From IMG/VR virus record IMGVR_UViG_3300044987_001206, positions 1-36,455 of that record: a stretch of DNA of 36,455 nt; one strand, 5' to 3'. Position numbers and translations under genes: made by a program. This DNA is from a virus (Duplodnaviria > Caudoviricetes). The notes below the pieces were generated by a model that did not search any database, had not been told where the DNA came from, and was given only the letters and a program-made list of their open reading frames with translations. This document shows, one piece after another, positions 14,780 through 24,423 of the stretch. The stretch's first letter is position 1, and each line of letters opens with the position of its first letter.

Positions 14780-15226
14780 CTATTTAGATTGCCCGCCAAA
14801 AGCTCCTAGTAAATTGCCGCTAACTGATAGTTCCTTACCACCTTTACCAGTATGCTCTAACGAGGCGCGGGCTACGTAACCGCGAGTACGCTCGAGCAAC
14901 CATGCGGATCCTTGCCAGCCATTACCGCATGATCGAACGACTGAGGTAAGGTCATATTCACCACGAGTCCTGGCCGCTTCGATGGCTTCCTTCCTTTCCG
15001 GATATCTCAGCAAGTATCGGTTGAAAGTCTTGTCACTCATTCCGGAAAGGGCCCAAAGCCTTTCCATCGGGAGTCCGAGCGATGCGGCATCTAGGACACG
15101 TGACCAGTCGGCATCTGCGATAGTCTTGGGATCAGGCCCGTTTTTTTTAGGTGCATCGGAAGGACGTTTTATGGGCACTTTCCCCTTTCCCCCTTTGACC
15201 AGGACATCACCCCCCTTTGCTTTCAT
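14780..15226 (-). CDS. terS: Terminase small subunit
   Basis: Upstream of terL; HTH-like segment, 'WQGSAWLLERTRGY' and 'EHTGKGGKEL' C-terminal motifs typical of terS. Confidence 0.8.
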   Translation of the reverse strand: MKAKGGDVLVKGGKGKVPIKRPSDAPKKNGPDPKTIADADWSRVLDAASLGLPMERLWALSGMSDKTFNRYLLRYPERKEAIEAARTRGEYDLTSVVRSCGNGWQGSAWLLERTRGYVARASLEHTGKGGKELSVSGNLLGAFGGQSK

Positions 15227-15268: not shown

Positions 15269-15297
15269 TTGACTCCCGTCGCATCTCGTTGCATTCT
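15269..15297 (+). promoter_or_regulatory. Putative sigma70-type promoter of the plus-strand operon
   Basis: TTGACT-17 nt-CATTCT upstream of ATG at 15334. Confidence 0.55.
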
Positions 15298-15333: not shown

Positions 15334-15444
15334 ATGAAACTTAAACCCTTCCTAACCGCCCTCGCGATCCTCATCGGAGCGTTCCTCGTAATCTCAGCCC
15401 TCGCGCTCTGCGTTGCAGAGTTCCTAGTCGGAGGTGTCCTTTGA
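15334..15444 (+). CDS. 36-aa membrane peptide (absent from ORF track)
   Basis: MKLKPFLTALAILIGAFLVISALALCVAEFLVGGVL; its stop overlaps the next TTG start. Confidence 0.6.
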   Translation: MKLKPFLTALAILIGAFLVISALALCVAEFLVGGVL

Positions 15445-15719
15445 ACCTAATCCCACAAACGGTTACCGCCCGAATCTTCGAAGATGTCGGTGGATACTAT
15501 TTTTGCTCTTCGGCTTCCGCTTGTTTGGACGCCCGCGGTCGCTTTTTCCGCTCTCGGGCGGAAGCTCTTCGGGAAGCTTACCGTTCAGGATTTACCCATG
15601 CTATCGGTGGGTATCGGCGCAAGGGTGGAAAAATCGCTTCTCAAGTCTCCCTTGAATCATGGGATCATCTAGATCACACCCGCGCTCTTTCCGTTCGGAT
15701 TGAAGGAGGGGCCCTTTGA
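15441..15719 (+). CDS. Hypothetical early protein
   Basis: GGAGG plus TTG start in a TTGA overlap; 92 aa. Confidence 0.65.
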   Translation: MNLIPQTVTARIFEDVGGYYFCSSASACLDARGRFFRSRAEALREAYRSGFTHAIGGYRRKGGKIASQVSLESWDHLDHTRALSVRIEGGAL

Positions 15720-16405
15720 ACGGATTCATTCTCCACGAGGATCACGACCGCGTGATCATCGCCACCGGCTTCAATCACCCCTCCGACAACCGGAAAACCG
15801 GCGACATGATCCAAATTTGGATCCTAGTCCGTTCTGTGAGTCCCACGGAAGCGATCCGGACGGGACTTGACCGGCTTATCTGTGGATCTTGTGTCCATCG
15901 CGGACACGAGGTTGACGGTCGCTTCGGTGTGGAAAGGACATGCTACGTAAATCCCGGGCAGGCTCCGCAAGGTATCTGGCGCGCTTGGCGTGCGGGCAAT
16001 TATCCTCCCTTGCGCTCCCTTGAAGCTTTCGTGGGCCGCAAAGTTCGCTTTGGAGCCTACGGCGATCCGACATGGATCCCCTTATCCCTTGCGCTTGCAA
16101 TTGCGGGTGTGGCTTCGGGGTGGACAGGCTACACACACCAATGGCGCAAGCCATCGCTCCAAGGATGGAAAACCCTTTTGATGGCCTCCGTTGACTCGGT
16201 CGCGCAACTCGTGATCGCTCGGTCACTCGGGTGGTCTACTTTTCGCGTGGGCTCCGAAGCTAGTGTGGGTGAAAACCTTTGCGCTTCCGATCGCGACGGT
16301 ACGCCATGCGCCGTCTGTCTTCTCTGTGCGGGTGCTCGCGGCGGTCTCGAGTCTGTCCACATTCCACCCCATGGAAAGGGTGCAACGCATTTTCTCGAAG
16401 CCTGA
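15716..16405 (+). CDS. Cys-rich putative Fe-S protein (DUF7227/GP88-like, radical-SAM-like fold suspected)
   Basis: NRKTG, CGSC...CY, RFGAYGDP, GYTH, ASVDS, C-x7-CxxCxLC and HG motifs. Confidence 0.6.
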   Translation: MNGFILHEDHDRVIIATGFNHPSDNRKTGDMIQIWILVRSVSPTEAIRTGLDRLICGSCVHRGHEVDGRFGVERTCYVNPGQAPQGIWRAWRAGNYPPLRSLEAFVGRKVRFGAYGDPTWIPLSLALAIAGVASGWTGYTHQWRKPSLQGWKTLLMASVDSVAQLVIARSLGWSTFRVGSEASVGENLCASDRDGTPCAVCLLCAGARGGLESVHIPPHGKGATHFLEA

Positions 16406-16473
16406 ATTTTCCGGAGGATCCATGGGGGAAACTCCGTGGGTTCTGCGGGCAATTTATGCCTAAGCAAAACCAT

Positions 16474-16740
16474 ATGAAAGACATCCTTGAAACGTTCAAA
16501 CGCAATGCCGACCGAGAAAGCCTGAAATCCTCCGTGGGCCGGGCGATTTTTTGCCCACGCTGTGAAAACCTGATGGACTATCGTCGCGCCGTTGAATTTT
16601 CCGTCTGGGAAAACGAGACTGGCAAATGCGCCACCGTGCGTGCGATGTGCGCGCCATGCTGGGATGGCGTGCGTGAACTGGTCACGAAGCCCGGTGTGAA
16701 GTATCGGGTGGATGTGATCGACGGAAGGAAGCTTAAGTGA
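16474..16740 (+). CDS. Zinc-finger protein
   Basis: CPRC...CAPC, 88 aa; ATG after an A-rich leader. Confidence 0.6.
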   Translation: MKDILETFKRNADRESLKSSVGRAIFCPRCENLMDYRRAVEFSVWENETGKCATVRAMCAPCWDGVRELVTKPGVKYRVDVIDGRKLK

Positions 16741-16850: not shown

Positions 16851-16884
16851 ACCCCGTAGGTTCAACCCTGCGGGGTTTTTCTTT
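16851..16884 (+). terminator. Rho-independent terminator
   Basis: ACCCCGTAGG-TTCAAC-CCTGCGGGGT followed by TTTTCTTT. Confidence 0.85.
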
Positions 16885-16898
16885 GCCTCGAGGGTGTG

Positions 16899-17285
16899 GA
16901 CACCCGACACCCGCCTTCCTTCCTTCCTAGGCCGCTTGCCGCTTGCCGCTTGTCTAACAGTAGGCCATCGGTTTTTCCTTCCTTCCTTTGCCCATAGTCT
17001 CGGTTCCTGATTTAACACTAGGCGACCAGGATACCCCCCTAGGACATCCAATGTCCGACCCCGCTATTGGCCTTGGACATCCCGTGTCCGACCCCGTTAC
17101 ACCCGTCCAGGATCCCGCCCATGTGCGCCCCCCCCAGGCATCGAACCTCATGGTGCGGTATTCGGGATTCTCCATACGCCATACGGAATTCGGAATTCGG
17201 AATTCCAGAATCGGGAATCGGGAAATCCGGAATCATGGTGCGGTCGAGTAGGCCAATCCAAGCGGTCCTGTTCTAAGCGGTCCAA
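16899..17285. repeat. Non-coding region of short tandem and dispersed repeats
   Basis: GACACCC x2, GCCGCTT x3, CCTTCCTTCC x2, GGACATCCNNTGTCCGACCCCG x2, TCATGGTGCGGT x2, CCATACG x2, GGAATTC x3 plus GAATC variants, AAGCGGTCC x2. Confidence 0.85.
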
Positions 17286-17586: not shown

Positions 17587-17615
17587 TTGACGCTGGATCG
17601 TCCATGACGCAATTT
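17587..17615 (+). promoter_or_regulatory. Putative promoter for 17625-18254
   Basis: TTGACG-17 nt-CAATTT, with ATG 9 nt downstream. Confidence 0.4.
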
Positions 17616-17624
17616 GCTCTTGCT

Positions 17625-18254
17625 ATGAGTTATCTGGACAATGGTTCCACGCTTCGGTCGATGTTCCGACTGACGCCCCCGCAACGCCATGACATCGACC
17701 CGGCTAAGTCCGAGGTTCTGGCCTACATAATGTCGAATCTCGCCTGTGAGCTTGGTCGAGCGATCCGTGCCTTCAATTCCATGAGGAACAAGAAGTCTCA
17801 AGTCCTTGTTTATGACATGGTTCATCGGCAGTGGCGTGGGTGTGACTGGGTTCCTCCGCAGGATGAGGACAAGGTTTCGTTGCTCTTGAGAACCATCAAT
17901 GACCTCAAGCGTGATGTTGCGTATCTGAAGACCGCGGTGAAGAAGCATGAACGATCGATTGGCCAACTCGAAAGGAAGCGTTCGGGTAAGCGTAAGGAGG
18001 AGGATGAATCGAAGAAGGAGGAGGAGGCTCCTAGCTACGAACCCGTCGTCGATGAAACATTGATGGAAGCAGCGAAAAAAGCCTCTGCCGAGGAGGAAGA
18101 GGCTGGTGGAGAAGACTGGTGGAAAGCTATGCGCGCCGCCTTGGCCGATGTGGAGGTGGTTGCGGCTCCTTCAGTTGCGCCCCGGTCATTAGCATCGGGT
18201 TCCACTGCTCCCACAGAATACCCTTGGGAGAATGCTGAAGATGAAGTGAGCTAG
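17625..18254 (+). CDS. Hypothetical protein: globular N-domain, coiled coil, acidic tail
   Basis: 209 aa from ATG 17625; 3' end overlaps the primase-helicase gene antisense by 128 bp. Confidence 0.6.
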   Translation: MSYLDNGSTLRSMFRLTPPQRHDIDPAKSEVLAYIMSNLACELGRAIRAFNSMRNKKSQVLVYDMVHRQWRGCDWVPPQDEDKVSLLLRTINDLKRDVAYLKTAVKKHERSIGQLERKRSGKRKEEDESKKEEEAPSYEPVVDETLMEAAKKASAEEEEAGGEDWWKAMRAALADVEVVAAPSVAPRSLASGSTAPTEYPWENAEDEVS

Positions 18255-20695: not shown

Positions 20696-20952
20696 TTTTG
20701 TTTGTGGACTACGAGTCCGTTGCCTTTGGAATCAACCAGTTCTACGGATCGAACGCTCTCCATGCGGGCCAAGGTCTTGATCATCTCGATGGGATCATGG
20801 GCTTGGGACACGCAAGTGAGGTGGATATCACCATCTCCGTAGTTGGTCTTTAGATTCTCTTCGGTTCGATCACGCCGCACTCGGATGGTTCGTCCATCTG
20901 AGAGATGGACCACCTTGATGGATTCGACGAGTAAGAATGCGTGACGGCTCAT
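20692..20952 (-). CDS. Hypothetical protein
   Basis: 86 aa, ATGA overlaps at both ends. Confidence 0.55.
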   Translation of the reverse strand: MSRHAFLLVESIKVVHLSDGRTIRVRRDRTEENLKTNYGDGDIHLTCVSQAHDPIEMIKTLARMESVRSVELVDSKGNGLVVHKQK

Positions 20953-21326
20953 TGCTTGGAGGTTTTACCGCAATGGGGGCAGTGCCGGCCTAGACCGGGA
21001 TCGGCGGGTAGAGTACCAAGCCACGAGCACAGATCGTGGTAGGATCGAACACCGAAGTTCGGCCACTTGAACGGTACGATGTCACGGGTATGGATTGCAT
21101 GGATGGCGGTCTCCTTGTCTTTGATCCCAAGCTTCTCCATCAAGTTCGCGTTGCGAGAACTGAGACCGGCGGTCCATTTGTTATTCGAGGCATCCCGCTT
21201 CTTGCCGGCGGCGATGATCTGGAACACCCGTTGCTTTGAGATGTTTAACTCTGCACCGATAGCTTTGTAGGTAAGTCCCTTAACCCTGAATTCTCTTACC
21301 TTATCGATTGAATCGTTGGTTTTCAT
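20949..21326 (-). CDS. Sigma70 region-4-like HTH fused to RNAP alpha-CTD-like domain and CPHCG knuckle
   Basis: GLTYKAIGAELNISKQRVFQI; GLSSRNANLMEKLGI...PNFGVRSYHDL; start could alternatively be at 21500. Confidence 0.7.
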   Translation of the reverse strand: MKTNDSIDKVREFRVKGLTYKAIGAELNISKQRVFQIIAAGKKRDASNNKWTAGLSSRNANLMEKLGIKDKETAIHAIHTRDIVPFKWPNFGVRSYHDLCSWLGTLPADPGLGRHCPHCGKTSKQ

Positions 21327-21373: not shown

Positions 21374-21550
21374 CTATTGCAACGGTATCTGGACCGCTCG
21401 ATACCGTTTCTGTGCTTTGTGGCACTGGACGCACAGGCCGGTTTGAGTTGTGCATCCGCATCCCAAGCATGCGGCCAATTCGTGACATAACAGTTTCCAT
21501 CGTTGTAGTTCCTCTATTGTTTGTTTGGTTGTTTGTTCTTGATGTTCCAT
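21374..21550 (-). CDS. Small Cys-rich protein
   Basis: MEHQEQ...CHELAACLGCGC...CVQC; overlaps the alternative N-extension of the downstream gene. Confidence 0.4.
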   Translation of the reverse strand: MEHQEQTTKQTIEELQRWKLLCHELAACLGCGCTTQTGLCVQCHKAQKRYRAVQIPLQ

Positions 21551-21756
21551 ACGCATGAATGCGAGATACCGTATTTCTTGGCCAACTCTCTGTAGGTGAA
21601 TGTTGAGTTATCCTTTAGAATGGATTCCCGAATCTTTGCTGGAACAGCTTCCCACCGCCGGCAGATCAATGGATCAGGGGCTTTGAAGGCGGGAACTGGT
21701 CCCAACATCTTCGCCATTGACTCCTTCGTCAACCCTAATTCTTGAAGTAGACTCAT
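21514..21756 (-). CDS. HTH DNA-binding protein
   Basis: TYRELAKKYGISHSCVWNIKN. Confidence 0.7.
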   Translation of the reverse strand: MSLLQELGLTKESMAKMLGPVPAFKAPDPLICRRWEAVPAKIRESILKDNSTFTYRELAKKYGISHSCVWNIKNKQPNKQ

Positions 21757-22845: not shown

Positions 22846-23040
22846 TTAGCTCAGTAGGTGTTTGATGATCTGATTCCGATCTTTGATCGTCGCTCTCAAG
22901 ATGCTCTCCAGAACAACGTGAGGGTTGATTGTCGCAACGTGTTTCCATTCTGGATTTCCATCGATGTGCTTGGCTGTATCCAGACTTTCTACGCGAACGA
23001 TGCCGTTAAATGCGTGGACGTAGATGAATGCGGGGTTCAT
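22846..23040 (-). CDS. Hypothetical protein
   Basis: ATGA-coupled start MNPAFIY. Confidence 0.5.
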   Translation of the reverse strand: MNPAFIYVHAFNGIVRVESLDTAKHIDGNPEWKHVATINPHVVLESILRATIKDRNQIIKHLLS

Positions 23041-23150
23041 GCCTTCCTTACCTTCTCCCGATGTCCGCAGATCGTGCAAACGTAGGTTTTTCCGCTCTTG
23101 GAGATGACAGCCACTCGGAAGCATCGCTCGCATTGGATGGTGTTGCTCAT
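23037..23150 (-). CDS. 37-aa zinc-ribbon protein
   Basis: CERC...CTICG; ATGA overlaps. Confidence 0.5.
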   Translation of the reverse strand: MSNTIQCERCFRVAVISKSGKTYVCTICGHREKVRKA

Positions 23151-23374
23151 GGCAACGGTCCTCCATTCTCCCACAGCAGCAGATCGGCGCGGAGAGCGTC
23201 GTTCTCCTGCTCTAGCTTGGTTATGATATCGCACAATCCAATAATCATTACCATGTTGGCCTCCGGTTTCTCAATCTGGTTGCGCTTGCAGATTTCAAGC
23301 CCTCGTTTCTCCGCATCCAACCCAACGTCCCGCCACGGTTCTTTGATAAAGGCGGCTATCTTAATAGTACTCAC
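23147..23374 (-). CDS. Hypothetical protein
   Basis: GTGA-coupled start with GGAGG upstream. Confidence 0.5.
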   Translation of the reverse strand: MSTIKIAAFIKEPWRDVGLDAEKRGLEICKRNQIEKPEANMVMIIGLCDIITKLEQENDALRADLLLWENGGPLP

Positions 23375-23619
23375 GGCTTGGCCTCCTTGGCTTTGTTCCA
23401 TCTGTTGCTGGAGTAATAATCACTGCAATATTTTTCCATCTCATCCCCAGCCTCCTCCAGCCGCTTGATGCGCTCATTGGCCGCGTTAAGTCCGCGTTCG
23501 ATGTCACAACCCACCTGCCAGATTTTGGCAAAGCCAGCATCAGGATGGTCTAAGAGTGCAGATTGCATTCTCGGCGTGTCGTGGATCATTTTCGTGGCGT
23601 CAGGAATATGATCGCTCAT
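23371..23619 (-). CDS. Hypothetical coiled-coil protein
   Basis: ATGA-coupled; DTPR...ERGLNAANERIKRLEEAGD. Confidence 0.55.
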   Translation of the reverse strand: MSDHIPDATKMIHDTPRMQSALLDHPDAGFAKIWQVGCDIERGLNAANERIKRLEEAGDEMEKYCSDYYSSNRWNKAKEAKP

Positions 23620-23804
23620 TTCGATTCCTTCCATTTAAACTGAGGTTTACCGCTTGTGTCGGCCACCCATTCGGCATGGCCTTTGATGACGGCTTCTTGT
23701 TGTACTTTATCAATTCCTCCAACAACTCCAATTCGGTTTGAAGCAAAAACAGAGATTATAACCGAAACAGCTATTGATATAATAAGAGGAGGGTTGTCTT
23801 TCAT
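23616..23804 (-). CDS. Small membrane-anchored protein
   Basis: Hydrophobic N-terminus; EAV..GHAEW......FKW. Confidence 0.55.
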   Translation of the reverse strand: MKDNPPLIISIAVSVIISVFASNRIGVVGGIDKVQQEAVIKGHAEWVADTSGKPQFKWKESK

Positions 23805-24079
23805 TTCGCCTTCTCCCTCGCTTTGAGCATTGCGTCGGCCAGTTGATAGGCACATTTGGAAATAGTATTAACATCAAAAGACTCGTATGCTTTCCACGCT
23901 ACTGGCAACGCACCCAATGCGAATAGGTCGCGCATGGTTGGGCCATCGTTGTGTTGTATTCCCGGTGGTGTCGGAAACGCTGGTCCGCCGTCGTTGATTG
24001 TTCCTCCTTTTATTGGAAAGTTTCCGATTCCCATGTCCTCACCTCGGAAAAATACGTTGGGGTTTGGTTGGTTGCTCAT
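23801..24079 (-). CDS. Widespread phage hypothetical (GGPAFP...RD.FA...AY..ADAML)
   Basis: Characteristic motif set; ATGA-coupled. Confidence 0.7.
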   Translation of the reverse strand: MSNQPNPNVFFRGEDMGIGNFPIKGGTINDGGPAFPTPPGIQHNDGPTMRDLFALGALPVAWKAYESFDVNTISKCAYQLADAMLKAREKAK

Positions 24080-24423
24080 TTCGATTCCTCCATCACTCCG
24101 CACGGGAGCCATGTTTTACCACCGTCGATGGAGTGTTCGTATTTTTCACACCAATCCTTTCTGTTCTCTTCGCCAGATGTGCGGTCGATCAACCAACGTG
24201 TTTTGGGGTATTCACGATTCCTCGCCTGCATTCCTAGCGGCACCTCATCCGCAGTCCACGGGCGGAGTTTAGCGGTGGGTTTGATGCGGTACTTTGTGTC
24301 GTCCCAGCCCCACCGAGGTACATAGAGCTTTACCCATATTCCGTTATACCGATGTTCCACTTCCTTCCCATCTACGAACGCCTGCATTACGCGGATGGCT
24401 TCTTTGGTTTCTTCGATGTTCAT
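24076..24423 (-). CDS. Widespread phage hypothetical protein
   Basis: MQAFVDGKEVE...P.W.W...YRIKP. Confidence 0.65.
   Translation of the reverse strand: MNIEETKEAIRVMQAFVDGKEVEHRYNGIWVKLYVPRWGWDDTKYRIKPTAKLRPWTADEVPLGMQARNREYPKTRWLIDRTSGEENRKDWCEKYEHSIDGGKTWLPCGVMEESK

Follow-up and report, generated by a model that had tools for sequence, protein, structure and literature searches.

A 125-aa protein encoded by a phage of the class Caudoviricetes couples a helix-turn-helix (HTH) resembling region 4 of sigma70 to a helix-hairpin-helix (HhH) domain resembling the domain at the C terminus of RNA polymerase's alpha subunit (alpha-CTD), two homologies that become visible through the wider protein family. 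The joint between them falls, by residue numbering, where the two host modules touch each other at promoters. Very probably the protein binds DNA through both modules; more tentatively, we read it as a polymerase-free clamp on the upstream half of sigma70-type promoters, repressing by occlusion, a reading that is plausible but could well prove wrong. The features concerned lie in the window, that is, the whole 36,455-base stretch analyzed here:

20949..21326, minus strand: fusion-protein gene (P0001), 125 aa, sigma4-like/alpha-CTD-like, AlphaFold2 mean pLDDT 83.7
21180..21320, minus strand: sigma-region-4-like three-helix HTH, residues 3-49
21165..21179, minus strand: joint, residues 50-54, with residue 50 at sigma R603 and residues 51-54 at alpha D258-E261
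21015..21176, minus strand: alpha-CTD-like HhH domain, residues 51-104
20970..20981, minus strand: single CxxC (C116-P-H-C119), an optional feature of the family, within a tail modeled at low confidence

The open reading frame reported in the initial annotation is present on the minus strand with its 125 codons, and all three motifs quoted there can be read in it. The frame stays open upstream to an ATG at 21500, which would give 183 aa, the length at which database copies are mostly called. The 58 codons gained in this way shadow a 60-aa gene that overlaps them (21374-21556). Over 34 codons, compared at 18 loci, the frame of the 60-aa gene keeps 87% protein identity against 65% for the extension; differences by its codon position number 517/472/1473, third positions changing most; and at three loci (L071, L074, L078) its stop codon overlaps the ATG equivalent to 21326. 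For these reasons 21326 is the better start, as originally assigned, and the 183-aa start was rejected because the extension is conserved less than the overlapping frame. The fusion frame is free of stops in 19 of 19 sequences, and its single-base codon changes are synonymous in 3156 cases and non-synonymous in 2269; it is a real gene under purifying selection. Contigs from four RNA libraries cover it, with DNA carry-over possible.

The gene has a fixed place in the replication module, between genes for RecT, exonuclease, SSB, helicase and resolvase on one side and primase on the other. Gene order is constant in the 78 loci found with the fusion gene, wherever the contig reaches the neighbors: an 80-aa HTH gene and the 60-aa gene lie upstream, small genes and primase downstream. 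Loci were also picked via a neighbor gene (the best 80 of 190, 70 of which had at least 700 bases upstream), and the fusion gene was present in 70 of these 70, which are close relatives and partly the same as the set picked with the fusion gene itself. It diverges faster than its neighbors, standing at about 48-50% where primase stands at about 75%. The 60-aa gene (minus strand), always directly upstream, encodes a conserved cysteine-rich motif (CxCxC, CxxC) without a family match, and its product is a possible partner of the fusion protein. The 80-aa protein (21514-21756, minus strand), conserved two genes upstream, has a C-terminal HTH and weakly matches phrog_836, “late transcriptional activator” (E 7e-5).

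Domain 1 is modeled with helices at residues 3-15, 20-27 and 31-49. An ungapped alignment pairs residues 18-49 with E. coli sigma70 571-602; R14, R33 and Q36 stand at the positions of R562, R586 and Q589. The query scores under the curated cut-off of Pfam Sigma70_r4 (PF04545; E 2.4e-4, 21.0 bits against 24.1), and 85 of the 106 family members match that model at E<=0.01; the family profile finds primary sigma factors as its best natural PDB matches for this domain (E 2e-7), and the PDB sequence matches listed for it are mostly primary sigma factors. The sigma70-region-4-like HTH that had been proposed is thereby upheld at the level of homology. In structure searches the modeled fold is a generic HTH, for which non-sigma regulators outrank sigma factors (8hno at Z 8.8, DesR at 8.4 and LsrR at 8.3, then SigF at 7.8).

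What the domain has kept and lost is uneven. Across the 106 members, R562 is kept in 93, T572 in 73, R586 in 94 and Q589 in 72. The -35 base readers of sigma70, R584 and E585 (PMC2613000), are poorly kept (24/106 and 8/106): the query has K31 and Q32 there, and Q occupies the E585 position in the query and in 39/106. The substitution E585Q in sigma70 itself relaxes specificity at -33 (PMC2613000). Since neither base reader is kept, the sequence does not support recognition of TTGACA as such. Other sigma positions are also lost (E591 kept in 3/106, R599 in 10/106, R603 in 7/106). The 563-570 loop is shortened in all 106 members, in which R562 and V576 are spaced by 9-10 rather than 14, and an R541 equivalent has no room in the query or in 64/106 members. 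H5 of sigma spans roughly residues 604-613, and sigma's last helix (after 603) is absent here, domain 2 standing in its place. The parts of sigma that bind the beta-flap lie in or near H1, H2 and H5 (PMC2988021), and R541C/L607P weakens flap binding (bioRxiv 2022.03.25.485794); judged by sequence only, these parts, including R541 and L607, are absent from the phage protein. Region 2, which serves core binding and -10 melting, is absent too, just 13 residues preceding the R562 equivalent. With regions 2 and 3 missing, the fusion protein is not a sigma factor.

Domain 2 is recognizable through the family rather than through the single sequence. PF03118 has no match in the query or in any of 19 close relatives, no alpha-CTD match was returned from PDB by phmmer with the query or by the close-relative profile, and the close-relative alignment (A3) reaches an hhalign probability of 2.6% against E. 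coli RpoA. In the wider family, 32 of 106 members match PF03118 at E<=0.01 (best 2.9e-7), the family profile matches PDB RpoA chains at E 5e-6 to 3e-4, and all PDB sequence matches listed for domain 2 are RpoA chains. The hhalign probability of the alpha-CTD-like domain is 96.8% to family member P0187 and 74% to the E. coli CTD, and by way of the family residues 54-100 align to the RpoA alpha-CTD.

Folded alone, domain 2 is modeled at pLDDT 92. The top three of 48,161 chains in a structure search are alpha-CTDs, at low Z-scores of 5.3, 5.3 and 5.2; the superposition on 5vi8 covers 51 residues at rmsd 2.1, and that on 7vpd 55 residues at rmsd 3.0 (Z 5.6). HhH domains of polymerase X (Z 4.9) and RAD51 paralogues (4.8) follow within 1 Z unit. 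Foldseek with domain 2 found nothing at E<=0.001 in PDB or BFVD; rank 16 in BFVD (E 5.3) goes to a phage protein annotated as “RNA polymerase, alpha subunit, C-terminal”; structure searches with the whole protein were filled by HTH matches. Because the Z-scores are low, the modeled fold by itself would place domain 2 in the HhH superfamily only, while fold and motifs taken together point to an alpha-CTD-like domain. Seen through the wider family, the second domain is much as it had been described, and the structural check that had been proposed for it, whether the fold is that of an HhH alpha-CTD, ranks alpha-CTDs first, weakly.

The motifs concern mainly the face that touches DNA. Residues R265 and N294 of alpha are DNA contacts (PMC5511352), and the 265 determinant of alpha-CTD serves DNA binding as the 261 patch serves sigma contact and the 287 patch CRP contact (PMC1874639). 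In the query, R58, N61, N90, G92, R94 and S95 are equivalent to R265, N268, N294, G296, K298 and S299. Among the 106 members these six positions are kept in 105, 65, 86, 102, 57 and 52 (the last with T in another 36), and among the 85 members below 35% identity to the query in 84, 61, 65, 81 and 48, with S or T at the S299 position in 67. The C269 position is L in the query and C in 30/106. The two docking patches are lost: D258, D259 and E261 survive in 3, 11 and 5 of 106 members, W (73) and G (85) appearing instead, and T285, E286, V287 and E288 in 0, 11, 0 and 0, the stretch matching alpha 285-292 being a G-x-L/I-x-P loop. Domain 2 thus retains the DNA face of alpha-CTD and has lost its protein-docking faces. 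The alpha N-terminal dimerization domain is absent, the N-terminal part of the 125-aa protein being the HTH; the fusion protein is not RpoA. The core carries a net charge of +9 in the query and a median of +8 in the family.

At UP-element promoters sigma R603 contacts alpha D259/E261 (PMC5511352). With residues 18-49 equivalent to sigma 571-602 and residue 54 to alpha 261, the phage protein has residue 50 at R603 and residues 52 and 54 at D259 and E261, so that the equivalents of R603 and D259 lie two residues apart; the joint is positioned by residue numbering, not by superposition on PDB 3N97. The family motif there is W-x-x-G. The spacing from R33 to R58 (R586 to R265) is 25 in 65 of the 106 members, the range being 21-56, and 49 of the 85 distant members likewise have 25; the profile search favors the query's spacing. 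From this we infer that the fusion would freeze the side-by-side arrangement seen in 3N97. The idea of a single-chain mimic of the host's upstream promoter-recognition apparatus can stand on this footing as an account of ancestry and anatomy: both modules trace back to polymerase parts, the DNA face of the alpha-CTD is the conserved one and the joint, by numbering, sits at the contact point.

The C-terminal tail was originally called a Zn knuckle, of which one CxxC remains. The tail is modeled at pLDDT about 50; one CxxC occurs in 59 of 106 members, two in none, and 47 have none at all, which does not favor a four-ligand knuckle. None of the 19 close sequences departs from C100, C116, H118 or C119; these sequences were found with search patterns that contained the residues in question. 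An intramolecular zinc site made of C100 or H96/H97 and the CxxC was considered and rejected for want of family-wide support, CxxC being unassociated with C100 (31/28/28/19) or with H96/H97 (32/27/24/23) across the 106 members. Prediction of a homodimer with zinc scored 0.14 against a mark of 0.42, a value that counts neither for nor against a dimer. The CxxC is an optional two-ligand add-on and a candidate zinc clasp between chains.

The design is widespread. A profile built from 19 close sequences and searched against 1.84 billion returned 1,279 representatives at E<=0.001, of which 106 reach E<=1e-10. Among the best 150 of the 1,279 matches, 103 have one HTH and one domain 2, seven have an HTH and two copies of domain 2, one each has the orders A-H-A and H-H-A, six have domain 2 only, and the other 32 are HTH-only or HTH repeats; within these 150 the HTH/alpha-CTD design thus has about 110 relatives at 50% identity. 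The family alignment used throughout (A4, n=106) comprises the query and 105 matches whose best stretch spans both domains. The tandem members (P0055, P0063, P0093, P0119, P0131, P0141 and P0177; L182:3146-3775) resemble the two alpha-CTDs that occupy the proximal and distal subsites of a full UP element. With a profile of one subgroup, 5 viral and 17 metagenome loci came up, and the fusion occurs in other phages, including one with a 211-kb record. Ten family loci were annotated: neighbors include Sak4, RusA, MazG, helicase, primase, DnaC, thymidylate synthase and methylases, several loci having few or no annotation matches, and distant members lie mostly among small replication-region genes. 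No full-length relative was found in cultured/GenBank phages by tblastn with three queries, and three Akkermansia phages with the closest terminases gave no family match; a GTDB scan with the close-relative profile produced an 11-residue chance match only, which was discarded. Among the best 25 families listed there is no dedicated Pfam, PHROG or NCBIfam model for the architecture. Searches of the open-access literature yielded no description of a sigma4/alpha-CTD fusion, and PMC7824862 and PMC12839542 contain nothing on the design. We regard the protein as a probable phage DNA-binding regulator of a known sort with an undescribed architecture, which a supplementary table could nevertheless list.

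On the clamp reading, the HTH would insert into the major groove as sigma does at -35, and the face equivalent to R265, N294, G296, K298 and S299 would enter the next upstream minor groove, as alpha-CTD does at about -42. The covalent W-x-x-G joint would substitute for the salt bridge between R603 and D259/E261, fixing the geometry without polymerase. Base reading would be relaxed or shifted, given the variable R584/E585 positions and the E585Q equivalent in the query, and backbone contacts and groove shape would dominate. As the flap-binding and activator-binding surfaces are absent, the protein would compete with holoenzyme instead of joining it, and host promoters, the phage's own early promoter, or both may be turned down during the replication phase. 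Repression is preferred over activation by elimination only. A more ambitious extension, which we consider rather unlikely, is that phages across several lineages fused host sigma region 4 and alpha-CTD at their contact point into a shape-reading clamp that shuts off the host by out-competing RNA polymerase. Relaxed -35 reading would then allow the strongest UP-dependent host promoters to be silenced wholesale, and the versions with two alpha-CTDs would copy the full UP element.

Two candidate DNA targets can be pointed to in the phage itself. A sigma70-like promoter at 15269 (plus strand; TTGACT, 17 bases, CATTCT, T-rich upstream tract) precedes a divergent operon, and six relatives have similar sequences at the homologous position, of which three narrowly miss the threshold. 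This early-promoter match is modest: sigma70-like sites at any place pass the threshold in 7 of 18 regions, which are homologous to one another, against 20% in shuffles. The operon (15334-16740, plus strand, against the main genome direction) encodes proteins of 36, 92, 229 and 88 aa, the 229-aa one matching phrog_2554; it varies between relatives and has a hairpin terminator at its end (16851-16876). The other candidate is the palindrome GGACA-N5-TGTCC at 17042-17056 and 17075-17089, two copies 33 bases apart in non-coding DNA with G-rich flanks. Each of the 18 related regions examined has it in non-coding DNA, and 6 of them have it once more shortly after the 5' end of terS begins; it may be an operator or a packaging signal. 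Neither the promoter nor the palindrome is tied to the fusion protein.

The initial annotation had offered three roles, as decoy, repressor or transcription-appropriation factor, among which the repressor fits best by elimination. Appropriation through the beta-flap is disfavored: the alpha-CTD-like domain stands where sigma has its C-terminal helix, the 563-570 loop is shortened and R541 has no room. An activator or appropriation factor that takes the place of sigma region 4 and alpha-CTD at middle or late promoters and recruits or stabilizes the host polymerase there, something MotA/AsiA or RinA achieve in other ways, is an unlikely reading but has several points in its favor. The phage may need an activator, for which the fusion gene is a candidate, because the DNA upstream of terS showed no clear sigma70 promoter (3 of 18 regions reach at least 8 of 12 matches); none was found upstream of RecT either, and scanning for sigma70 promoters yielded 2 sites where shuffles gave 9.6 on average. 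A scan of 45 window ORFs turned up neither a polymerase nor a sigma factor, and no integrase, and the fusion gene was retained at every one of the neighbor-picked loci. Late activators usually lie between replication genes and terminase, which is where one distant member sits (L087, with terminase and portal beside it). In this phage group, however, about 6 kb separate terS from the gene, which lies midway in the replication module, most distant members are likewise found among replication-region genes, and the missing flap-binding parts and 261/287 patches speak against recruitment. It is less likely still that the protein is an ordinary site-specific regulator whose polymerase-derived modules read a phage operator such as GGACA-N5-TGTCC as a dimer clasped by CxxC and zinc. 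The ubiquity of the palindrome in the related regions and its copies within terS would suit this, its half-site shares the ending GACA with the -35 hexamer, and S30, Q32, R33 and Q36 of the recognition helix are invariant in the 19 close sequences, whereas the helix of the neighboring 80-aa HTH protein varies among relatives. Against it, an exact match to the palindrome is absent from all four distant phage records carrying family members, its G-rich flanks do not suit an alpha-CTD that prefers an A/T-rich groove, and CxxC is missing from nearly half the family. The copies inside terS would suit a packaging signal, and TerS and the 80-aa HTH protein are other candidate binders.

Two further explanations are improbable. 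The fixed place beside the recombination and replication genes, together with the closeness of polymerase X and RAD51 HhH domains to alpha-CTD in structure searches, could indicate a non-transcriptional DNA binder of that module, an origin or DNA-organizing factor with a generic HhH as domain 2. Yet the PDB sequence matches listed are RpoA for domain 2 and mostly primary sigma factors for domain 1, the joint reproduces a polymerase-specific contact, and small regulators are common in phage replication modules. A decoy that titrates host activators, anti-sigma factors, NusA or defense sensors docking on sigma region 4 or alpha-CTD seems the most doubtful of all. Both folds are known docking platforms (PMC1874639; PMC2988021), but it is the docking surfaces that have diverged (the 261 and 287 patches, and E591, R599 and R603 of sigma) while the DNA faces are conserved; as regards activators in particular, the decoy role is disfavored because the 261 and 287 patches are replaced.

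In the complex of alpha-CTD and sigma region 4 on UP/-35 DNA (3N97; PMC5511352), the modules and their order along DNA would be as proposed here, the DNA-contact residues are those kept in the family, and the fusion joint falls at the contact point. The phage protein differs in being one free 125-aa chain, untethered to core polymerase, in a family with W-x-x-G in place of the acidic 261 patch and with variable R584/E585. With the RpoA C-terminal domain (PF03118; 2max, 5vi8, 1z3e, 7vpd) it shares the HhH fold (Z 5.2-5.6) and the motifs L-S-x-R-x-x-N and N-[FY]-G-x-K-[ST]-x-x-E, whereas the 285-292 helix region has become the G-x-L/I-x-P loop, longer by 1-5 or more residues, the alpha N-terminal domain and the 261/287 patches are missing, and the query misses PF03118. 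With sigma70 region 4 (PF04545; 1ku3, 1tlh) it shares the ungapped stretch 571-602 and R562, T572, R586 and Q589, but it is without regions 2 or 3, its 563-570 loop is cut and its last helix is replaced.

Phage T4 likewise controls the -35/UP step of host polymerase, through AsiA, which remodels sigma region 4, MotA, which binds H5 of sigma, and ModA, which ADP-ribosylates R265 (PMC2988021). None of these proteins copies host modules, and no homology to AsiA, MotA or ModA appeared among the matches listed in the family, PHROG and PDB profile searches. RinA late activators (PMC3152322) are also small phage transcription regulators, but no RinA family match is among the best 25 families listed. 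An alpha-CTD-like domain outside RpoA is shared with PglW of type-2 BREX, a defense kinase of 1400-1600 aa with wHTH modules rather than a sigma4 fusion (PMC12839542). The phage factors known to act at -35/UP change the host's own modules by modification or remodeling, as T4 ModA/Alt do with R265 and AsiA with sigma region 4; a fused copy of both modules would be a different phage strategy. Should it bind as predicted, the protein would amount to a natural version of the alpha-CTD/sigma4/DNA complex in a single chain, of use as a small reagent for studying how UP/-35 is recognized and possibly as a scaffold for repressing promoters broadly.

Within a group of lake phages whose probable hosts are Verrucomicrobiota, the fusion gene ranks as a core regulatory gene; transcription control has been little studied in the phages of these bacteria. 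The 36,455-base virus record is 96% complete, has a 176-base end repeat and encodes terminase, portal, capsid and tail genes in addition to the replication module, with nearly all genes on the minus strand; its 18 best DNA matches are labeled as lake-water metagenomes. The depth of DNA contigs gave no hint of a doubled terminal region, although contig depth is no measure of one. The probable host is drawn from two observations: among 258 phage records, Akkermansia phages supply the three best terminase matches (31-36% identity), and Verrucomicrobiota are represented in Atlas look-alike clusters with PF03118 (score 0.86), which is no more than a lead. The TerS gene (14780-15226, minus strand) shows 40-83% identity among relatives whose TerL is 90-100% identical, a contrast that suggests module exchange. 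A block of small genes at 22950-24420 is hypervariable, many contigs swapping or skipping parts near 23370-23450. A 216-aa gene on the plus strand (17604-18254), without a PHROG match, converges on and overlaps the end of the primase gene and has a distant match on the opposite strand in three other genomes (G014, G023, G011). The non-coding stretch at 17100-17250, conserved among relatives, carries short repeats of the GAATTC/GATTCC type and a conserved 15-base word twice, and is a possible origin.
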